Assembly: GCA_045654505.1 (NCBI GenBank)
Contig: JAZONM010000009.1
Span: forward strand, 135-64,134
Source: Clostridia bacterium
GTDB lineage: Bacteria > Bacillota > Clostridia > Christensenellales > UBA1242
Reading direction: 5' to 3'
DNA: 64,000 bases
The translations under genes were made by a program, and so were the position numbers. Of this stretch, positions 45,083-52,688 are shown piece by piece (within the stretch, counting starts at the first letter, position 1; every line of letters starts with the position of its first letter). The notes beneath the pieces were generated by a model. It had not been told where the DNA came from. It searched no databases and saw only the letters and a list, made by a program, of their open reading frames with translations.

Positions 45083-45110
45083 AAAATCGCTTTTTGGGGC
45101 GATTTTTTTT
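45083..45110. terminator. Bidirectional terminator (HAD gene / sigF)
   Basis: Stem AAATCGC / GCGATTT flanked by A-rich and T9 tracts. Confidence 0.6.
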
Positions 45111-45835
45111 TAGCATAAGACCTCTTTTAGTTTTTTTAATATTTTACTTTCAAGTCTGCTTATTTGCACTTGCGAAACTCCAAGTTCTTCAGCAATTTCT
45201 TTTTGTGTCTTGTCTCTGAAATAACGAAGTATGATTATTTTCTTATCCCTTGGTGGTAAATGCTCGATAATTTTGTAAAGTGTGTGGTTGTCTATATCGT
45301 TTTCGATAGGTTGATCATTTTCTACTCGGTCTATTAGATACATGTCTTTTCCATCGTCTTCGTCACCAATTGTTGTGTTTAGAGATACTATTTGTTTTGA
45401 ACTTTCCATTGCGTATACGACTTCATTACTATCTATGCCAAAATATTTTGCTATTTCCTCTACAGTAGGAGATTTTTCGTTAGTGCTTGTGTATTCGTCT
45501 ACATATTTATTGATTTTCACGGCTAAGGTTTTTATTTTTCTTGATATTTTAATAATTCCGTTATCTCTCAAAAATCTTTTGATTTCACCAGCTATCATTG
45601 GTACGGCGTATGTCGAGAATTTTACATTAAATGATTTGTCAAAATTATTGATTGCTTTTAAAAAACCAAGACTGCCTAATTGAAATAAGTCGTCATAGTC
45701 TATGCCTTTATTGAGATATATTTTAATAACACTTTTAATAAGTGGAGAATTTTCACTTACTAATTTTTCTTTTGCATCTATATTATTCTTTTGCGCCTCT
45801 TCGATCAATTCGAGGGTGCGTGATGCATCAAGCAT
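45110..45835 (-). CDS. sigF: Sporulation sigma factor F
   Basis: Sigma-70 regions 2-4 (DDLFQLGSLGFLKAINNFD; KFSTYAVPMIAGEIKRFLRD; TQKEIAEELGVSQVQISRLE), downstream of spoIIAA/AB. GGAGG precedes the ATG at 45835. Confidence 0.85.
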   Translation of the reverse strand: MLDASRTLELIEEAQKNNIDAKEKLVSENSPLIKSVIKIYLNKGIDYDDLFQLGSLGFLKAINNFDKSFNVKFSTYAVPMIAGEIKRFLRDNGIIKISRKIKTLAVKINKYVDEYTSTNEKSPTVEEIAKYFGIDSNEVVYAMESSKQIVSLNTTIGDEDDGKDMYLIDRVENDQPIENDIDNHTLYKIIEHLPPRDKKIIILRYFRDKTQKEIAEELGVSQVQISRLESKILKKLKEVLC

Positions 45836-45836
45836 T

Positions 45837-46283
45837 TCAACCTCCCACAACCATATTCATAACTCCTACTTTTTTGTACATGGACACGATTACGCCTTTA
45901 TTAGGTGATGATATAACTTGTACACTGTCCATAAATCCTTCCATTACTGTAAAACCCATACCGCTACGTTCGGTTTCGGGTTTTGATGTGTAGAAGGGTT
46001 GTTTTGCCTGGTCAATGTCCTCAATGCCAATGCCATAATCTGTAACAGTTATGTAGACGTCATTGTCGGATATTTTTACGTTTACTATTACATCCCCTGT
46101 AGTTTTAGGGTAGGCGTGTACTATCGAATTGGTAATTGCTTCGCTTAAGGCTGTTTTTATATCGCCAATTTCTTCAATTGTCGGATTGATATTGGAGACA
46201 AAACTTGCGACACTAAGACGTGCAAAGCTTTCATTTTCCTTTATTGCGCTAAAACGTAGCGTCATTTCATTATTGTATGACAT
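45837..46283 (-). CDS. spoIIAB: Anti-sigma F factor (serine kinase) SpoIIAB
   Basis: GHKL ATPase motifs (LSEAITNSIVHAY; DYGIGIED; ERSGMGFTVM). Confidence 0.9.
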   Translation of the reverse strand: MSYNNEMTLRFSAIKENESFARLSVASFVSNINPTIEEIGDIKTALSEAITNSIVHAYPKTTGDVIVNVKISDNDVYITVTDYGIGIEDIDQAKQPFYTSKPETERSGMGFTVMEGFMDSVQVISSPNKGVIVSMYKKVGVMNMVVGG

Positions 46284-46292
46284 AATGTCCTC

Positions 46293-46601
46293 CTAGCTGA
46301 TTTTAGGCATGATTTCATATAGCCCGCTCATATTAAATATTTTTTCAATCTGTGAATTTGCATTTGTGATATATATGCTTTTATTTTTGTTTTTAAGAGC
46401 TTTGTATCGACCAATTAGTACGCCGATGCCGGTACTGTCCATGAATTCGAGTTGTGATAGGTCATATATTAGTTTATTGAAAGAAGTTTCCTTTATTATT
46501 TTATCAAGTATTTGTCGTGTATAATTTGCTGTATATTCGTCCAATTCGCCGCATAACATTATATATAGAGTGTTGTTGTACACTTTCTTTTTTATTTGCA
46601 T
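46293..46601 (-). CDS. spoIIAA: Anti-anti-sigma factor SpoIIAA (STAS)
   Basis: STAS domain with the phosphorylatable Ser context (FMDSTGIGVLIGRYK). AAGGAGG precedes the ATG at 46601. Confidence 0.85.
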   Translation of the reverse strand: MQIKKKVYNNTLYIMLCGELDEYTANYTRQILDKIIKETSFNKLIYDLSQLEFMDSTGIGVLIGRYKALKNKNKSIYITNANSQIEKIFNMSGLYEIMPKIS

Positions 46602-46663
46602 TTTATCCTCCTTCATGTTTATTTCATTATATCAAAATAATGTTTGCATATTTTTAGAGGTAT

Positions 46664-46670
46664 TGTCGAA
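46664..46670. promoter_or_regulatory. Perfect Spo0A-box heptamer upstream of spoIIAA
   Basis: TGTCGAA on the plus strand (TTCGACA on the gene strand), about 65 nt upstream of the spoIIAA start. Confidence 0.4.
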
Positions 46671-46732
46671 TAGACACTTTTCTTGACTAAAATCAATATA
46701 GTAAAATATGTTGAAAATTTCTAAAAATTCCC

Positions 46733-46761
46733 TTGACAATATGAATAGGATATAGTAAAAT
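46733..46761 (+). promoter_or_regulatory. sigmaA-type promoter of the tRNA array
   Basis: TTGACA, 17-nt spacer, TAAAAT, about 25 nt before tRNA-Pro. Confidence 0.6.
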
Positions 46762-46785
46762 CTTTTCGTTATCGTAAGAGAGTTT

Positions 46786-46862
46786 CGGGGTGTAGCGCAG
46801 TTTGGTAGCGCACTTGATTTGGGATCAAGGGGCCGGGAGTTCGAGTCTCTTCACCCCGACCA
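46786..46862 (+). tRNA. tRNA-Pro (anticodon TGG)
   Basis: Acceptor stem CGGGGTG/CACCCCG, anticodon loop TTTGGGA, T-loop GGGAGTTCGAGTCTCTT, encoded CCA. Confidence 0.9.
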
Positions 46863-46881
46863 ATATCTTTATGATAAAAGA

Positions 46882-46958
46882 GGGCGTTTAGCTCAGTTGG
46901 TTAGAGCAACCGGCTCATAACCGGTCGGTCCGGGGTTCAAGTCCCTGAACGCCCACCA
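46882..46958 (+). tRNA. tRNA with anticodon CAT (elongator Met or lysidine-modified Ile2)
   Basis: Acceptor stem GGGCGTT/AACGCCC and anticodon arm ACCGG-CTCATAA-CCGGT. The paired 1:72 position argues against an initiator. The overall sequence resembles Bacillus tRNA-Ile(CAU). Confidence 0.85.
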
Positions 46959-46971
46959 CATTTTTAACTAT

Positions 46972-47048
46972 GGCCTGGTAGTTCAGCTGGTTAGAACGCT
47001 AGCGTGTCACGCTAGAGGTCGAGGGTTCGAGTCCCTACCAGGTCGCCA
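46972..47048 (+). tRNA. tRNA-Asp (anticodon GTC)
   Basis: Acceptor stem GGCCTGG/CCAGGTC, anticodon loop GTGTCAC, encoded CCA. Confidence 0.9.
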
Positions 47049-47058
47049 TTCATAATGT

Positions 47059-47134
<76 letters not shown>

Positions 47135-47166
47135 TTTATGAGTTTTAATTAAATATTTTGTTTTGT

Positions 47167-47242
<76 letters not shown>

Positions 47243-47283
47243 TTTTTAGCTATTGCATTTTTACTACAATGGTTAAAAAAATC

Positions 47284-47368
47284 GGGAGGTTTGCAGACCG
47301 GCCAAATGCAACAGACTGTAAATCTGTCGTCTCAGACTTCGGTGGTTCGAATCCACCACCTCCCACCA
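47284..47368 (+). tRNA. tRNA-Tyr (anticodon GTA, long variable arm)
   Basis: Acceptor stem GGGAGGT/ACCTCCC, anticodon arm ACAGA-CTGTAAA-TCTGT, a 13-nt variable arm, encoded CCA. Confidence 0.9.
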
Positions 47369-47376
47369 TAAAGAAA

Positions 47377-47418
47377 CCATAATATTGATACGAAAAATAT
47401 CGGTATTATGGCTTTTTT
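47377..47418 (+). terminator. Rho-independent terminator of the tRNA array
   Basis: 14-bp imperfect stem CCATAATATTGATA / TATCGGTATTATGG followed by T6. Confidence 0.8.
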
Positions 47419-47473
47419 ATTGCTAAAATAGGGGTATTTTACCCTTTTTCATAGGTTTTACAGCAAAAAATTT

Positions 47474-47514
47474 AGGCTTGCCGGGATAGTTTTCATCCTC
47501 GCAAGCCTTTTTTG
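47474..47514 (+). terminator. Orphan terminator-like hairpin
   Basis: Stem AGGCTTGC / GCAAGCCT (extended by GGGAT/ATCCT) followed by T6GT5. There is no ORF upstream of it. Confidence 0.5.
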
Positions 47515-47606
47515 TTTTTAGCCATAAAAAATAAATCGTTCACTTTATACCCCTTTCGTTCAATTTATGGGGTATCGTTCAATTGCTGATTTGCTGAATA
47601 AACGCC

Positions 47607-47635
47607 TTGTTTTTAGTTGGTTTTTATGGTATAAT
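47607..47635 (+). promoter_or_regulatory. sigmaA promoter with extended -10 for the SGNH gene
   Basis: TTGTTT, 17-nt spacer, TATAAT preceded by TGG (TGnTATAAT). Confidence 0.5.
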
Positions 47636-47704
47636 ATACTCACTGAAAAAATAAGAGTTTGACGGCCACTTTTAAGATGATTAACAAATTAGGAAGGGAT
47701 CTTT

Positions 47705-48421
47705 ATGACTAAAAAGAGGAAGATTATTCTTGCAACGGTAGTGTTCTCTATTTTATTGGCTATAGGGGTAAGTCTTACATATATTTTTGCTGTGGCATTG
47801 CCGCAAAAGCGAGATAAGGAGCAATTATTAAAAGCGGTGCAGGAGTATTATGACGCAAAGCTTGCTATGTATACAGCGGAAAACGAGAAATATGATGACT
47901 ATGAGGTGGACGTTGCATTCCTTGGCGACAGCCTTACCGACGGATACGATCTTGAAAAATACTTTCCGCAATATCTTGTTCTTAATCGCGGAATTGGTGG
48001 TGAAACGACCTTTGGTCTTGAAAAACGTCTTAAGGTATCGGTTTATGATTTAAAGCCTAAAGTGGCAGTAATGCTCATAGGGGCAAACAACTTTGATACA
48101 ATGTTTGATAACTATGAAAATATTTTGAAGGGATTTAAGGAAAATCTGCCAAATACCAAAATAGTATTGCTATCTCTTACATCTATGAGTCAGGAATGGG
48201 GCAAAAATAATCAAAAAGCAGCTTATAACAACGTTATAATAAAGCTCCTGTCAGAAAAATACGGATACGAATTTGTCGATCTTTATTCACCACTTTTGAA
48301 TCTTGAAACAGGTGAAATATATGCAGAATATACGACCGATGGCGGTCACTTAACATCCGCAGGATACGAGGTTCTTACAAATACGATAACTCCCGCACTC
48401 GAACAACTATTAGGTAGATAA
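47705..48421 (+). CDS. Membrane-anchored SGNH/GDSL-family hydrolase (lipase/esterase/acetyl-esterase type)
   Basis: N-terminal TM. Block I FLGDSLTDGY (catalytic Ser), block II NRGIGGET, block III GANN, block V DGGHLT. Confidence 0.8.
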   Translation: MTKKRKIILATVVFSILLAIGVSLTYIFAVALPQKRDKEQLLKAVQEYYDAKLAMYTAENEKYDDYEVDVAFLGDSLTDGYDLEKYFPQYLVLNRGIGGETTFGLEKRLKVSVYDLKPKVAVMLIGANNFDTMFDNYENILKGFKENLPNTKIVLLSLTSMSQEWGKNNQKAAYNNVIIKLLSEKYGYEFVDLYSPLLNLETGEIYAEYTTDGGHLTSAGYEVLTNTITPALEQLLGR

Positions 48422-48522
48422 CTGCGCTTAACAGCATTACAAATTCCAATTTATCTAACTAAAATGGGTGCAAACCCTTGTAGCAAGATGCACCCATATT
48501 AATGTTTGTTGTTTGTGTTTTT

Positions 48523-48642
48523 AAAGAAATAAAAAATCGACCTTGTGTCGATTTTTTTATTTATTGTGTATTGATATCATTGTTTGATATATCTTAATCG
48601 ATAATATCAATATTGAGTTGTAGTTATAGATAGTATTGTATT
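48523..48642. repeat. Direct repeat copy A (terminator plus decayed gene 3' end)
   Basis: Aligns by eye to 50400..50519. The first 36 nt are near-identical (AAAGAAATAAAAAATCGACyTTGTGTCGATTTTTTT), and identity is roughly 75-80% through about 120 nt. Confidence 0.75.
48561..48642 (-). pseudogene. Decayed 3' fragment homologous to the C-terminus of the 749-aa lipoprotein gene
   Basis: The minus strand reads ...DIID*DISNNDINTQ*, compared with the intact ...MLDIINQGTVNNGINTL*. It has in-frame stops and no upstream ORF. Confidence 0.6.
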
Positions 48643-48670
48643 GATAATATTATTAGGATAATATATTCAA

Positions 48671-49372
48671 TTACAAGCGATCAATTTTGATTGATGAAAT
48701 ATTTAGTGTGTCGATTTTTAAACAGTTTTCAACAATAACCTCAGCAACTCTTGTTGGATTCATATATTTATCTGAAATCTCTTTAGGGGTGTAGTATCTT
48801 ATGTTATCATAAAATGGGGTATTTATACCGCCTGGGAAAACACCTATAACCTTGATATTTGTATCTGCCAACTCAATTTTTAAAGCGTTTGTAAATCCTT
48901 TCATGGCGTATTTTGCACAACAATACATGCTTTCCATTGGTTTTCCTAGTAATGCCGCGCTTGACATAACATTAACAATTTTGCCAGCATTATTTTTTTT
49001 CATGTAAGGTAGGGTATTGGCTGTCATAAGAATTGCTCCAAATGCACATTCCAAAACAACATCTAGTTTTTCTTTGCTGTTTTCAGAGAAATGGCATGCT
49101 TTGATTGTAGCGGCATTATTGATTAAATATGCTATATTATAATTTTCGCCAATAGTTTTGATGGTGTTTTTAACAAATTCTTCATCGACAACATTTCCAA
49201 GAAATGTCAAAAGATCTACGTTTTTGATTTGTTTTTTTAATGCATATACTTTTTCCATATAATCAGGGTTTTTATCTATAATTGCTACATTATAGTCTCT
49301 ATCTAAGAAGAGTTTTGCCATTTCAAAACCTATTCCAGAAGCAGCGCCGGTAATAATAATTATGTCTTTCAT
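48671..49372 (-). CDS. Short-chain dehydrogenase/reductase (classical SDR)
   Basis: Cofactor motif TGAASGIGFE, NNAA, catalytic Ser (MSSAA) and YxxxK (YCCAKYAMK), and PGGINTP. Confidence 0.85.
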   Translation of the reverse strand: MKDIIIITGAASGIGFEMAKLFLDRDYNVAIIDKNPDYMEKVYALKKQIKNVDLLTFLGNVVDEEFVKNTIKTIGENYNIAYLINNAATIKACHFSENSKEKLDVVLECAFGAILMTANTLPYMKKNNAGKIVNVMSSAALLGKPMESMYCCAKYAMKGFTNALKIELADTNIKVIGVFPGGINTPFYDNIRYYTPKEISDKYMNPTRVAEVIVENCLKIDTLNISSIKIDRL

Positions 49373-50220
49373 TATTTAATCCTCCTAGCATATATTTCAG
49401 CAATTGCAATGGCGTTTTTGTTGTTAGCATTATCAATAGCAATTCTTGCAATATCCCTTGGGGAAATTTTGTTTCCTGATGGATATTTTTTAACATTTGA
49501 AGCATCGTATGATGACCAAAAATCGCTATCTACTGCGCCGGTATAAACTTTTAAAACATGTGACACCTTATCGTCAGTTTCGCAAGTCTTGTATATACTG
49601 TCAAAGAAACCATCCATGCCATGATATGCTGCTGAGTGTGCTGTTTCATTAGCAAGACCTAGCTTTGTGGCTTTTTCGTGGAGTATACATATAATTTTCG
49701 ATTCGTCCATCAAGTCGTAAAATATAGAGCATGCCAAAACACTAGTATATATTGGTCCTCTAAAATTTTGATAAATACTATCAAATGTATTGTTTTCGAC
49801 TTTATCAAATTTACTATTATTTTCAGTAAATACTAGTTTTGATATTTTGTATTTTGACAGATTTTTTTTAATTTTAAGAAGGTCTTCTTCATTTGCTCCA
49901 TCAGCATTGTAAATAAATGAGTGAGTGCAATTGCCAAATTCCTTTATGGCTTTCAATACTTGTTTTTCATCATTGCTAATAAAGCAAACATGTTCACCCT
50001 TTTCATATAGATATGTTGATATTTCAAAGCCTATATTATCCATACCGCCAAAAACTACATTGATGGTAGGTTTTTGATTTAATTTAGTGTCTTCCGGAAC
50101 AATCCAAGTTTTGCCGACTTTTGCTGCACCAATAATAACTCCGTCTTGACATAATCTTCTTACATATCTTTCCGAAACGTTGAGTTTTTGAGCTGCTTGG
50201 CTTATAGATATATAATTCAT
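49372..50220 (-). CDS. HTH (excisionase/MerR-like) DNA-binding domain fused to a degenerate SDR-like domain
   Basis: N-terminus ISISQAAQKLNVSERYVRRLCQDGVIIGAAKVGKTWIVPED. The C-terminal domain is paralogous to the downstream SDR, but its motifs are eroded: FGGMDNIG replaces TGxxxGIG and YHGMD replaces YxxxK. The stop overlaps the SDR ATG (TAATG). Confidence 0.7.
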   Translation of the reverse strand: MNYISISQAAQKLNVSERYVRRLCQDGVIIGAAKVGKTWIVPEDTKLNQKPTINVVFGGMDNIGFEISTYLYEKGEHVCFISNDEKQVLKAIKEFGNCTHSFIYNADGANEEDLLKIKKNLSKYKISKLVFTENNSKFDKVENNTFDSIYQNFRGPIYTSVLACSIFYDLMDESKIICILHEKATKLGLANETAHSAAYHGMDGFFDSIYKTCETDDKVSHVLKVYTGAVDSDFWSSYDASNVKKYPSGNKISPRDIARIAIDNANNKNAIAIAEIYARRIK

Positions 50221-50246
50221 ATTGCCTCCTTAATTACTTCCTTATT

Positions 50247-50285
50247 TGGTACTAATATTGTACCAGATAAAACAATGTTAGTCAA
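50247..50285 (-). promoter_or_regulatory. sigmaA promoter with overlapping 19-bp palindromic operator
   Basis: On the minus strand: TTGACT (50285-50280), 17-nt spacer, TACAAT (50262-50257). The palindrome TGGTAC-N7-GTACCA (50247-50265) covers the -10 element. Confidence 0.55.
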
Positions 50286-50399
50286 ATATGTTGTATTTAT
50301 TGTTAATTAAATATAGCAAATTTTATCTATTGGCTGTTATCATTCTTTTAAAATTTGAATAGAGTAAATTTTACTTTTATATTTAGAGTTGTTTGCGAA

Positions 50400-50519
50400 A
50401 AAGAAATAAAAAATCGACTTTGTGTCGATTTTTTTTGTTTATAGTGTATTGATTCCATTGTTTACTGTGCCTTGATTGATAATATCAAGCATTGTGTTGT
50501 AACCATAGGTATTTGTATT
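50400..50519. repeat. Direct repeat copy B (terminator plus intact 3' end of the 749-aa gene)
   Basis: See copy A. It includes the bidirectional hairpin AAAAAATCGAC / GTCGATTTTTT (50408-50436). Confidence 0.75.
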
Positions 50520-52688
50520 ATTATTTCGATTCATGTTGTTTTGGATTGTATTTCCATTATTGCCGTACTCAGCATTATTGTTTGTGCCATTGTTTTTTAT
50601 TTCGCCGTCATTAGTATAGTAATAACCGCCATATCCGTCATTATTGTTTAGATTGTTTTGATTGATGACTGAGTTTTTGTAGATATTATCATTGATGAGA
50701 TTTCCGCCTGCTGTTCCGTTGATTATGTTTTCGTCGTTTGCGATACTATTGCTGAAGGCATTGTTGTTTGTGTTGCTTGGCACGGGATTTGTGTTGTCGA
50801 ATGCAGGGTTTGGAATGTCGTTTATTGTGTTGTTTGTGTCAATATTGTTCTCTGCATTTTCATTTACAATATTTTCGGAGTTGTTTTCTTCTGTAATACT
50901 ATCGCTACTGTCATCTTCTGATGGACGGTATGTGTCTATATTTTTAATAGTATTTTTTTCTTTATTCTCTAAATCATTGTCTATGTTTTCATTTTTTGTA
51001 GTACTATATTCATTTTCATTTTTGACGTCTTGGTTTGCTAAACTATCTTCCTCAATCGATTCAGTTGTTGAATCGGAGTGAGTAGGGTCAATTACCACGA
51101 TTTCAATTTCTTCGTTTTCTATTTTGTCTAGTAATTCATTATTTGTGTTTACGCTATTATCAGTGTGTTGATTATTACTGTCTGCTTTTTGAGCAATGTC
51201 AATATCTGTCTCAGAGTCATTCACAGTATTATCGTCTTCATTGAGATTGTTGTCAGTTGTGTTATCTTGAATATCTATTGTATTGTTATCAATAATATCG
51301 TCTGGCGTTGATTCGTAAACATTGTTATTGTTTAGTTCGTCAATTATTTGATCGATTTCTTGGTCGCTGACATCTGATTGATTTAATGCATCTTCAAGCA
51401 AATATCGAATTTGCTCAAGGGTTGCTATTGCACTTTCGTGATATGTTATTCGTGTGTCAAGGTGATTGATAAGTTTCATATAATTGCTATTCAGTACATC
51501 AACACTTGATGCGATTGATGTTGGCACATTGCTATTGATTGTTGTGATTTCATTTTCCAAATCACCATTACAATTTTTCAATCTTTTTATTATTGTCTTA
51601 ATGTCTTGTATATAATTATTTATTGCTTGAAGTTGTTGGATAGTGGGTGCACATTCACCATTGATAATACAATTATTTAGGTCGCGAACTTCGTCGATTG
51701 TGTCAAGAAGTTCTACTTTAGTGATTCTCAAGACATTGTTGGCTTCTAAAGCGTCTTCGGTCATTGCGTATAATCTTTGTACTTTGTATAGATAATTTGA
51801 CAATTGGTCATTGATATTTGATTCATTATATTCGCTTACAAATCTAGGATTATATCTTAGTTTTAATGGTCGAAAACTATCAGTGGTGAAGTAATACATT
51901 TTGATTTTATCAGTAGTACTTTTCTCATTGTCGGCAAGTGTTTCATTATTAGATTCTTCAATTGATTCGTCTTTTACGGTGTCTGTAATTGAGGTTGTAT
52001 TCTCGTCTGTAGGGTTATCTTCTATTGGAATAATTTCATAGTTTTTATCAAAAGTAGGATCTTCGATAAATTCATAATCTACTGGATTTTCCTTTAAAGT
52101 TTTGTTTTCTATGGTGCTATCGATATTTATATGTTGGGGCTTATAAGATGTTGATTGAGTTTTTTCTATAAGATAACTTTTATTACATGAATCACAGATG
52201 TTTTCATTATTTAAACATAACTTATTTTCACAGTAGCGACAATTTCCATTTTCGTCACAAAGTATGCCTTGATTGCAATTATTGCAGAACCCGTTTTCGT
52301 CGCAGGAGTATGTGTTGTTGCAGTTGTTGCAATAACCGTTGTTGTTTAAGCTTAGTCTTTCTTGTATTTCATTTTTCATAATGTTATCTAAAGAAATGTT
52401 GGTATTTTCATCATCTGTTTGTTTGATTGTCTTACTAAAATTATTACTAAATACGGATAACATTTCGTTGTTTTTACTCATATTTATTGTTTTTTGCACA
52501 CTGTATATATCTGGGTTGTTTATATAGTTGTTGTCAATAGTATCTAAGTTGTTGACAACAGAATATAGTTTGTTTAAATTTGCATTAAGTTTTTTGCTTG
52601 TATTTTCTTGTGTATCTGAGTTTGCGCATCCACATATAAATATAGATGTTAGTGCTATAGATATAGCTGATATTATTATTTTTTTCAT
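50439..52688 (-). CDS. Asn/Asp-rich lipoprotein with CxxC repeat block, function unknown
   Basis: Signal peptide plus lipobox (MKKIIISAISIALTSIFICGC). Cys block CNNCNNTYSCDENGFCNNCNQGILCDENGNCRYCENKLC...CDSC, a central predicted helical region, and a long N/D/E/T low-complexity tail. GGAGG RBS. Confidence 0.65.
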   Translation of the reverse strand: MKKIIISAISIALTSIFICGCANSDTQENTSKKLNANLNKLYSVVNNLDTIDNNYINNPDIYSVQKTINMSKNNEMLSVFSNNFSKTIKQTDDENTNISLDNIMKNEIQERLSLNNNGYCNNCNNTYSCDENGFCNNCNQGILCDENGNCRYCENKLCLNNENICDSCNKSYLIEKTQSTSYKPQHINIDSTIENKTLKENPVDYEFIEDPTFDKNYEIIPIEDNPTDENTTSITDTVKDESIEESNNETLADNEKSTTDKIKMYYFTTDSFRPLKLRYNPRFVSEYNESNINDQLSNYLYKVQRLYAMTEDALEANNVLRITKVELLDTIDEVRDLNNCIINGECAPTIQQLQAINNYIQDIKTIIKRLKNCNGDLENEITTINSNVPTSIASSVDVLNSNYMKLINHLDTRITYHESAIATLEQIRYLLEDALNQSDVSDQEIDQIIDELNNNNVYESTPDDIIDNNTIDIQDNTTDNNLNEDDNTVNDSETDIDIAQKADSNNQHTDNSVNTNNELLDKIENEEIEIVVIDPTHSDSTTESIEEDSLANQDVKNENEYSTTKNENIDNDLENKEKNTIKNIDTYRPSEDDSSDSITEENNSENIVNENAENNIDTNNTINDIPNPAFDNTNPVPSNTNNNAFSNSIANDENIINGTAGGNLINDNIYKNSVINQNNLNNNDGYGGYYYTNDGEIKNNGTNNNAEYGNNGNTIQNNMNRNNNTNTYGYNTMLDIINQGTVNNGINTL

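Follow-up and report, generated by a model that had tools for sequence, protein, structure and literature searches.

An excisionase/MerR-type winged helix fused to a catalytically eroded SDR fold, in a two-gene unit with an intact SDR: a candidate one-component regulator

On the minus strand of a stretch of Clostridia bacterium DNA analysed over its full 64,000 nucleotides (the window), a gene for a fusion protein and a gene for an intact SDR make up a 1.8-kb accessory unit. The features on which the argument below draws are these:

48523..48610, no strand: direct repeat copy 1 (repeat, hairpin and copy-comparison searches)
48671..49372, minus strand: intact classical SDR, 233 aa (adh_short, E 9.9e-42 in Pfam; motif table)
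49372..50220, minus strand: fusion gene, 282 aa, with HTH_17 (aa 3-44) and a classical-SDR-fold domain (aa ~52-282)
49381..49386, minus strand: AGGAGG ribosome-binding site of the second gene, within the last codons of the fusion gene (read from the sequence)
50225..50231, minus strand: AAGGAGG ribosome-binding site of the fusion gene, 4 nt before its ATG (read from the sequence)
50247..50265, no strand: palindrome TGGTAC-AATATTA-GTACCA, candidate operator (sequence; genome-wide match)
50257..50285, minus strand: putative sigma-70-type promoter TTGACT-17 nt-TACAAT, with TG before the -10 (promoter scan)
50400..50488, no strand: direct repeat copy 2 (repeat families D1 and D2; hairpin scan; comparison of copies)

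In the 282-aa protein, an excisionase/MerR-type winged helix is joined without intermediate to a domain of classical SDR fold. HTH_17 (PF12728) at residues 3-44 (E 5.4e-7; 30.2 bits, cut-off 27) and adh_short at residues 55-238 (E 7.6e-8; 32.5 bits, cut-off 26.6) both score above their Pfam cut-offs, and the AF2 model is confident (pLDDT 93.9, pTM 0.84), with a wing at residues 38-42 followed by strand 52-57 of the Rossmann fold and no MerR-type coiled-coil helix. An earlier reading of the locus from its letters (the sequence-only reading) had proposed just such a fusion of an HTH to an SDR-like domain, and the similarity of the C-terminal domain to SDRs, on which that proposal depended, is present, with a score above the adh_short cut-off. 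All matches listed by Foldseek against the PDB are classical SDRs of about 210-270 residues; the closest fold relative among them is 3guy (E 4.6e-15), and the closest solved relative by sequence is 3l6e (phmmer, E 4.8e-6). Both are bacterial SDRs of about 230 residues that, unlike the fusion protein, have no DNA-binding domain; in the alignment of 3l6e with the fusion protein, the catalytic positions of 3l6e are occupied by Ser and YxxxK and those of the fusion protein are not. The nearest clusters in the ESM Atlas, a lead only, are plain SDRs, none with an HTH. For the HTH itself, the NCBIfam model TIGR01764 falls just under threshold (28.1 bits, cut-off 28.8); its sequence alone found no match in the PDB, and a profile search placed the phage Xis-like protein Gp37 (4j2n) nearest, weakly (E 0.0096). 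The sole match to PADLOC models was that of the HTH (residues 3-44) to mad1 (E 2.7e-5); the downstream SDR matched none of these models, and neither protein was matched beyond the generic HTH.

Three alignments (BLASTP against the neighbouring SDR, phmmer against PDB 3l6e and a 75-row MAFFT alignment) agree that the fusion protein has Glu182, His195 and Tyr199 in place of the catalytic Ser, Tyr and Lys. The degradation of SDR motifs claimed at the outset is thus confirmed, with all three residues replaced and the catalytic set not restored on proper alignment; FGGMDNIG had been correctly identified as the counterpart of the TGxxxGxG loop and HEK as the Ser region, whereas YHGMD, offered for YxxxK, lies four residues out of register, the three alignments giving H195-S-A-A-Y199. 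Ser is retained in 0 of 11 fusion homologues, Tyr in 1 of 11 and Lys in 0 of 11, against 30, 31 and 31, respectively, of 31 canonical relatives. The substitutes are varied, with Glu, Thr or Lys for Ser, Phe (7 of 11), His, Tyr or Trp at the Tyr position, and Tyr, Ser, Cys, Met or Trp for Lys, as expected for positions freed from catalysis. By these counts, loss of the catalytic residues extends throughout the small fusion family. The middle Gly of the Gly-rich loop persists in 2 of 11 fusion proteins versus 31 of 31 canonical ones, the loop carries one to three Asp in this subfamily (Asp61 here, up to three in P0007 and P0008), and NNAG is lost, with F-T-E-N in the fusion protein. Because the Gly-rich loop and NNAG are both gone, it is doubtful that members of this subfamily bind NAD(P); an Asp-bearing loop and a missing NNAG make NAD(P)(H) a less likely signal, and the earlier suggestion of a cofactor sensor appears weakened. 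Among the relatives, P0009 (35% identical) retains GxxxGxG and the acidic residue after strand 2 and lacks Ser and Lys, and P0014, which has no HTH and carries His at the Tyr position, is half eroded; together with the fully eroded 282-aa protein they form a natural series of SDR erosion useful for pseudoenzyme studies.

Despite this loss, the HTH and the rest of the SDR domain are well conserved in the family, which comprises about 12 clusters. Mean column identity in its alignment (A1) is 76%, positions 1-10 are invariant, and the substrate-loop motif F234-W235 and E133/N134 are kept down to 31-35% identity. In a rapidly searched tree, rooted only at its midpoint and built without P0001 (nearly a duplicate of the 282-aa protein), ten fusion domains and P0014 form a clade of their own (SH-aLRT 99), and the downstream SDR is nested among canonical SDRs, with P0027. 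The two SDR domains of the unit, at first called clearly paralogous, are so only broadly: BLASTP detects their relationship (21% identity, E 7e-6), but they fall into separate, well-supported clades. An origin of the dead domain by recent tandem duplication was rejected, the clade of fusion domains standing apart from the downstream SDR.

The 233-aa SDR has the motifs TGAASGIG, NNAA, Ser and YCCAK, with Asp33 after strand 2, and its relatives in the PDB are generic SDRs; its best NCBIfam model, PRK08267, scores below cut-off (133.9 bits, cut-off 261), so the protein receives no named function. Read on the minus strand, TAATG at 49370-49374 makes the stop of the 282-aa gene overlap the start of this canonical SDR, as the sequence-only reading had seen, with one base (49372) common to both genes. 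On sequence grounds, the second gene is translationally coupled to the first. The overlapping pair is kept in the sole other genome found with the fusion gene (G787, locus L001), where the overlap is 4 nt and the two proteins are 61% and 76% identical to those of the window.

Upstream of the pair, the TTGACT-17-TACAAT promoter and the perfect TGGTAC-N7-GTACCA palindrome over its -10, both noticed in the original reading, are present. The putative promoter has 10 of 12 consensus matches and is one of the two best in 48300-50600; the palindrome spans its TG extension, the leading three bases of the -10 and the region where transcription is predicted to start. This is the sole exact copy in the 1.01-Mb genome (1,013,280 bases); allowing up to 2 mismatches, the pattern has 33 genome matches versus 20 for a control and is not clearly enriched. 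The window holds 57 comparable perfect 6+6 inverted repeats (at least 3 G/C per arm, spacer 3-11), or 0.089 per 100 bp, against a shuffle mean of 26, and a palindrome of this kind is only moderately unlikely by chance (a few percent near a promoter), the present one having been noticed post hoc. At L001, the one orthologous locus in which its conservation was checked, 9 of the 12 arm bases are kept and the palindrome is no longer perfect; TGG and TAGTACC keep their spacing from the -35 amid flanks that cannot otherwise be aligned, and the promoter at the aligned position is weak (a manual count gives 8 of 12, and the promoter scan does not list it). A search of metagenome contigs returned no orthologous locus for promoter comparison.

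The unit is a strain-specific insertion between direct repeats of ~88 nt and was not found in 40 genomes of the same genus. Repeat families D1 and D2 recur at a spacing of 1877-1878, and 64 nt are 90.6% identical between the two copies. Copy 2 contains a hairpin (50408-50434), a bidirectional terminator, and also the genuine 3' end of a 749-aa gene, with its stop at 50439, the gene part being matched by relatives L035-L037. Copy 1 consists of the duplicated terminator hairpin (48531-48557) and a degenerate version of the final ~50 nt of the 749-aa gene; its hairpin is the terminator of the two-gene unit. Another hairpin, at 48439-48498, was rejected as a member of the unit, being single-copy in the window genome. 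Elsewhere the unit is rare. Searching genome contigs with the single fusion protein yielded no further orthologous locus, and searching them with the family alignment yielded L001 as the sole further one; no further full-length copy occurred in samples of the window's order (401 genomes), the window's family (401) or the family of G787 (11). A search of sequencing runs found no RNA run listed as carrying the unit, and the Logan contigs recovered (X1-X4) are short, low-depth pieces, and those listed leave 50219-50275 unbridged. Most likely, the two genes are a self-contained regulator-plus-enzyme pair of a rare type.

How the fusion protein might engage a two-fold symmetric site is suggested by a model of its homodimer, which reaches an ipSAE of 0.48 versus 0.00 for the best of 3 controls; among proteins of solved structure, 20 of 30 pairs and 1 of 23 single chains attain the ipSAE mark. 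The runs agree in at least 97% of contacts, and partner pLDDT is at least 80. The protein is predicted to pair through the usual SDR four-helix interface, here helices 140-169 and 187-214, and this interface includes S196, A197, A198, H200, G201 and G204, all invariant in nine close family members; H200 lies on the predicted two-fold axis, outside the pocket. The score may reflect mere likeness to the many solved SDR dimers. A homodimer, if formed as predicted, fits a two-fold symmetric DNA site.

We posit, with moderate confidence, that the product of the first gene regulates transcription as a one-component dimer, in which the dead SDR domain would hold the subunits together through the SDR four-helix interface and probably also provide a ligand pocket; the second gene, by translational coupling, would yield the active SDR. 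The dimer would most likely sit on TGGTAC-N7-GTACCA, over the -10 and start of the unit's own strong promoter, keeping the operon shut off until a small molecule, kin to the substrate or product of the enzyme, releases it. The architecture, the loss of motifs, the coupling of the genes, the overlap of promoter and palindrome and the predicted homodimer all favor the sensor/regulator-plus-enzyme unit envisaged from the sequence; binding at the palindrome, (auto)repression and ligand sensing by the fusion protein are the parts that we infer. HTH_17 domains are also known from excisionases and other proteins that are not regulators.

Two alternatives, each unlikely in our view, would keep the DNA-binding role and change what the SDR fold does. 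The dead SDR could form a mixed oligomer with the co-translated active one, so that DNA binding by the HTH would be set by the state or amount of the enzyme and not by a ligand pocket of the fusion protein's own. The two proteins have a common fold and belong to the same broad SDR group, the stop/start overlap with its internal AGGAGG is kept in both genomes, the predicted homodimer interface is generic to SDRs and would be open to a paralogue, and mixed SDR tetramers do exist, the human ketoacyl reductase (4cql/4cqm) being among the fold matches. However, the family-invariant interface residues (the S196-G204 set) differ in the downstream SDR, which has CCAKYAMKG there, and the modelled pairing of any two SDRs would not discriminate. 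Similarly improbable is an SDR fold that serves as a ligand-free dimerisation module only, so that the fusion protein would either control its own expression constitutively or act on other genes. The eroded cofactor motifs would suit such a scaffold, as would the location of most invariant residues of the "active-site helix" in the predicted dimer interface; yet the full 230-residue fold is kept, including F234-W235 and E133/N134, which exceeds the needs of a dimer interface, and the fact that the gene has stayed coupled to an enzyme points to a metabolic signal.

Far less probable is a bifunctional enzyme-regulator with unusual catalytic residues, such as His195/His200/Glu182. All nine close members share H181, K183, N191, E192 and H200, and His occupies the Tyr position in both the 282-aa protein and P0014, but that position is Phe in most fusion proteins, the Ser and Lys positions vary, the Gly-rich loop and NNAG are lost, and H200 falls on the predicted two-fold axis instead of in the pocket. 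We likewise give very little credence to a part in mobility or maintenance of the cassette, with an excisionase-like or recombination-directionality role for the HTH and a palindrome that is a recombination site or due to chance: HTH_17 is an excisionase family, TIGR01764 is narrowly missed, the nearest solved HTH is Xis-like and the unit is an insertion between direct repeats, but no integrase, transposase or other mobility gene lies within or adjoining the unit, searches of viral contigs and (by tblastn) of plasmids did not turn up the family, comparable flanking repeats were not seen at L001, and a 230-residue SDR fold paired with an SDR would have no place in such a role.

If the preferred reading of a ligand-released dimeric repressor is correct, the fusion protein would join those transcription factors in which an entire enzyme fold has become the sensor, illustrating the evolution of regulation out of metabolism. 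In MocR/GabR (aminotransferase fold) and Bacillus subtilis PurR (phosphoribosyltransferase fold), an HTH is fused to an entire enzyme fold that has ceased to catalyse its reaction and provides both dimerisation and the effector module, and regulators of these types often autoregulate and control an adjacent enzyme gene; they differ from the fusion protein in both DNA-binding family (not HTH_17) and enzyme fold (not SDR). Rex likewise has an N-terminal winged helix and a dimerising, non-catalytic Rossmann sensor domain and represses at palindromic operators. The fusion protein resembles it in joining a winged helix to a Rossmann-fold domain, but that of Rex is not an SDR and has an intact NADH site, whereas here a classical SDR fold has eroded dinucleotide motifs; Rex-related families were absent from the 18 Pfam matches of the fusion protein up to E = 1. 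NmrA and HSCARG are atypical/extended SDR-like regulators without a DNA-binding domain that act by binding other proteins; they share with the fusion protein an SDR-derived fold without the catalytic Tyr, turned from catalysis to regulation, and the Pfam search of the fusion protein found no NmrA match. HTH_17 proteins of the MerR superfamily and excisionases include Xis and BldC, and the N-terminal 44 residues of the fusion protein match this HTH; MerR regulators, however, have a coiled-coil dimerisation helix and an operator within a 19-20-nt spacer, and here there is neither, the spacer being 17 nt and the palindrome overlapping the -10 instead of filling it. In the literature searched, we found no SDR-fold sensor fused to a DNA-binding domain and, in full text, no study of the HTH_17 and SDR-fold combination. 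The practical reach is limited, the host being an uncultured gut bacterium with a reduced genome; the unit is nonetheless convenient for testing, with promoter, candidate operator, regulator and enzyme in 1.8 kb and a family that is tiny and well delimited.

A second, larger HTH_17-SDR family, of 461-aa proteins (e.g., P0158 in G701), comprises 157 clusters at E <= 0.001 among 8000 candidates scored. It is represented in the same bacterial family, and its members have the same N-terminal HTH type and an SDR fold; they differ in consisting of HTH_17, adh_short_C2 and a C-terminal domain, with about 170 extra C-terminal residues, and the 282-aa protein resembles them weakly (P0095, E 1.9e-5). 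A bolder proposal, which we consider possible and rather doubtful, is that the SDR fold is a new type of sensor that does not bind NAD(P): with its former cofactor cleft acidified, it would use that cleft and the substrate pocket to detect what the co-translated enzyme consumes or makes, or would sense that enzyme directly in a mixed SDR oligomer, so that the dead paralogue reports on the chemistry of the live one. In this proposal, gut Bacillota would contain a class of SDR-based one-component regulators that has gone unrecognised, and the 461-aa family, perhaps still catalytic, would form its second branch. The sources name entries of the 461-aa family just "SDR family oxidoreductase" or similar, and P0158 retains Ser-Ser and the Tyr-x6-Lys spacing, which we take to be the enoyl-reductase pattern.

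We posit that the 282-aa fusion protein is a dimeric one-component regulator, the best-supported reading, in which the dead SDR domain would supply symmetry and probably the effector pocket, and the dimer would occupy a candidate palindrome over its own −10 element and start site, thereby controlling its own gene and the translationally coupled SDR. All parts of the unit are read on the minus strand, 5′ to 3′.

Features of the unit and its surroundings
50434->50408, minus strand: bidirectional terminator hairpin, terminating the upstream 749-aa gene
50285->50257, minus strand: promoter TTGACT-17 nt-TACAAT with TG ahead of the −10, 10/12 consensus positions, joint best within 48300-50600
50265->50247, minus strand: perfect palindrome TGGTAC-AATATTA-GTACCA, spanning the TG extension, the first three −10 bases and the predicted start region
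4 bases 5′ of the fusion-gene ATG at 50220, minus strand: AAGGAGG
ending at 49372, minus strand: 282-aa ORF, its TAA sharing one base with the ATG of the 233-aa ORF (TAATG)
within the last codons of the 282-aa gene, minus strand: AGGAGG for the 233-aa gene
stop at 48671, minus strand: 233-aa ORF, followed by another copy of the hairpin at 50434->50408, here at 48557->48531
47705-48421: GDSL-lipase gene, between the sigF operon and the 749-aa gene
46786-47368: six-tRNA cluster, likewise between the sigF operon and the 749-aa gene

The stop/start overlap, the near-consensus promoter and the perfect palindrome over the −10 had been described in the sequence-only reading, and all are present. The HTH joined to an SDR-type domain was also borne out, with Pfam matches above cut-off to HTH_17 at residues 3–44 (E 5.4e-7; 30.2 bits, cut-off 27) and adh_short at residues 55–238 (E 7.6e-8; 32.5 bits, cut-off 26.6). 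In NCBIfam, the excisionase domain TIGR01764 scores 28.1 bits, just under its cut-off of 28.8, and no SDR equivalog comes near its cut-off (best 39.3 bits vs 271). The AlphaFold2 model (75-row input alignment; mean pLDDT 93.9, pTM 0.84) has high confidence and shows a three-helix winged HTH leading directly into the first strand of a Rossmann fold. Every PDB match listed by Foldseek is a classical SDR of ~210–270 residues (best 3guy, E 4.6e-15), and a DNA-binding domain is absent from every one of those listed.

Homodimer prediction for the full-length protein gave an ipSAE of 0.48 (0.49, 0.48, and 0.46 in three runs); the highest-scoring of three controls gave 0.00. The value passes a mark that 20 of 30 proteins with paired solved structures attain, as does 1 of 23 with single-chain structures; at least 97% of contacts recur across the runs, with partner pLDDT of at least 80. 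The predicted interface comprises helices 140–169 and 187–214, with His200 on the two-fold axis. Since SDRs ordinarily pair through this four-helix interface, the pass may reflect resemblance to solved SDR dimers. That the dead domain instead joins the active neighbor SDR in a mixed oligomer seems unlikely to us.

Three alignments (BLASTP against the neighbor SDR, 21% identity, E 7e-6; phmmer against PDB 3l6e, E 4.8e-6; MAFFT with 31 canonical relatives) agree in placing Glu182, His195, and Tyr199 at the positions of the catalytic Ser, Tyr, and Lys; by this measure the SDR domain is CATALYTICALLY dead. The YxxxK equivalent is therefore HSAAY. Loss of the catalytic residues and degradation of TGxxxGxG to FGGMDNIG had been read correctly, and only the register of YxxxK needs amending, as the proposed YHGMD sits four residues beyond. 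The NNAG equivalent is FTEN, and the middle Gly of the Gly-rich loop is kept in 2 of 11 fusion proteins vs 31 of 31 canonical relatives. In the former phosphate-binding loop, Asp61 is always present in the window protein's subfamily, with up to three Asp in the relatives P0007 and P0008, and this acidic loop would make dinucleotide binding there doubtful. P0009, a 35% identical relative, retains LGGAFGEG and “VAVLD,” so an NAD(H)-binding ancestor is plausible. The alternative that the SDR fold is purely a dimerization scaffold has, like the mixed oligomer, a low probability. Ser is kept in 0/11 fusion proteins (30/31 canonical relatives), Tyr in 1/11 (31/31), and Lys in 0/11 (31/31), and the substitutes vary by family branch (E/T/K for Ser, F/H/Y/W for Tyr, Y/S/C/M/W for Lys), a pattern that would be expected where catalysis no longer constrains these positions. 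Residual unusual catalysis is very improbable. The rest of the protein is well conserved (76% mean column identity among nine close members, in which residues 1–10 are invariant), and the predicted dimer interface would account for the invariance of S196, A197, A198, H200, G201, and G204 in a domain no longer needing YxxxK.

The neighbor SDR is a textbook classical SDR (adh_short E 9.9e-42) with TGAASGIG, NNAA, Ser, YCCAK, and Asp33 past strand 2; its PDB relatives are generic SDRs, and its best NCBIfam model (133.9 bits vs a cut-off of 261) names no function.

The genome has a single exact copy of the palindrome, and sites with up to two mismatches number 33 vs 20 for a reversed control, which does not point clearly to a regulon. 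Perfect 6+6 repeats of a similar kind (at least three G/C per arm, spacer 3–11) number 57 across the window (0.089 per 100 bp; shuffle mean 26); the chance of one on a given promoter is a few percent, for a palindrome noticed post hoc. Conservation was checked in one orthologous locus, L001 of the “Bacilli bacterium” MAG G787, where the left arm is 4/6 identical (TGGCAT vs TGGTAC) and the right arm 5/6 (GTACCT vs GTACCA); the upstream region is otherwise unalignable, with TTGA-T, TGG, and TAGTACC kept in register. The recognition-helix regions of the two proteins are near-identical (SERYVRR/KLC), so a common site is expected. We infer that the regulator would bind the palindrome, repress its promoter, and respond to an effector; the proposed sensor/regulator plus enzyme unit is plausible, partly supported, and easily testable. 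Rex, MocR/GabR, and PurR are enzyme-fold sensor regulators, as is NmrA for the SDR fold, and the fusion protein may resemble them in mode of action. It belongs to none: it has no Pfam match to Rex or NmrA, its model lacks the MerR coiled coil, and the promoter spacer is 17 nt, shorter than the 19–20 nt of MerR-type activation.

Full-text literature searches, matched on listings and abstract openings, found no study of an HTH-SDR fusion. Searched by word index, 5.8 billion proteins yielded eight relatives among 442 candidates (56–97% identity, 282–286 aa). Across 1.84 billion cluster representatives, an exhaustive HMMER pass found 358 matches at E ≤ 0.001, of which only P0003, P0009, and P0010 (32%) are full-length and the others HTH-only or SDR-only; two further clusters came from a profile search, bringing the number at E ≤ 1e-10 to 11. 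A quick maximum-likelihood tree groups ten fusion domains and P0014 in one clade (SH-aLRT 99) and places the neighbor SDR within the canonical group beside P0027, so the dead domain did not arise by recent duplication of the neighbor SDR. P0014 (231 aa, from a Logan contig outside the window) is sister to the fusion domains, lacks the HTH, and has half-eroded motifs (TGGNNGEA, Ser present, HCAAK with His for Tyr), possibly an intermediate between enzyme and pseudoenzyme. The HTH_17-SDR architecture is not unique to this family. P0158 (463 aa; G701, same bacterial family, L024:1489-2880) has HTH_17 at 7–47, adh_short/adh_short_C2 at 63–286, and ~170 C-terminal residues without a domain match, and retains Ser-Ser and Tyr-x6-Lys spacing. 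Its own family, mostly ~461 aa, numbers 157 clusters at E ≤ 0.001 out of 8000 candidates scored; the sources give its members no more specific name than SDR oxidoreductase or 3-oxoacyl-ACP reductase.

The fusion family is very small, and its member in the window lies on a strain-specific insertion. Sampling 400 other genomes of the window's order and 400 of its family (34 of the same genus) turned up no further full-length copy, and the cassette part of a DNA query was matched by 0 of 40 other same-genus genomes. G787, from another family, carries the pair with a 4-nt overlap (61% protein identity for the fusion, 76% for the SDR), and the pair is absent from all ten other genomes of its family. 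Nucleotide similarity between window and L001 (70%) begins at the first-gene ATG (50221) and stops 11 nt beyond the second-gene stop (48660). Direct repeats of ~88 nt flank the unit (48523-48610 and 50400-50488; spacing 1877–1878 nt; 64-nt core, 90.6% identical): the second combines the terminator with the genuine 3′ end of the 749-aa gene, and the first repeats both in decayed form. In same-genus relatives (seven short loci, three 13–18-kb regions) the 749-aa gene abuts the sigF 3′ end, neither the cassette nor a GDSL gene intervening, and the sigF operon (spoIIAA-spoIIAB-sigF) is inverted relative to its flanks in the window genome (window 45110-50488 vs L035, L036, and L037). These features suggest that the unit was acquired through recombination at the terminator. 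Finally, a role for the HTH in cassette mobility is very improbable; the unit contains no mobility gene.

Sporulation genes flank the unit on either side. The genome (1.01 Mb, 19 contigs, 93.9% complete, 0.16% contamination; family relatives 0.8–1.4 Mb) encodes SigF, SpoIIAA, SpoIIAB, SpoVAC, SpoVAD, and SpoVAE despite its size, which is unusually small for a bacterium with sporulation genes. The 749-aa protein (50439-52688, minus strand) is Asn/Asp/Thr-rich, with no Pfam match and a signal-like N terminus with Cys, lipoprotein-like by eye; it is 39–51% identical to same-genus counterparts vs 65–94% for neighboring genes. In G578, of the same genus, a GDSL-lipase homolog (60% identity) adjoins another SDR, 33% identical to the window's intact one (L026:21-548 and 1327-2037), which hints at a recurring GDSL-SDR neighborhood. 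Window 48439-48498, 3′ of the GDSL gene, is a hairpin-forming stretch (ATGGGTGCA...TGCACCCAT) with one full copy in the window genome; in four metagenome runs it reaches 10–30x the cassette depth, on many contigs with differing flanks, and is probably a repeat element common to other community members.
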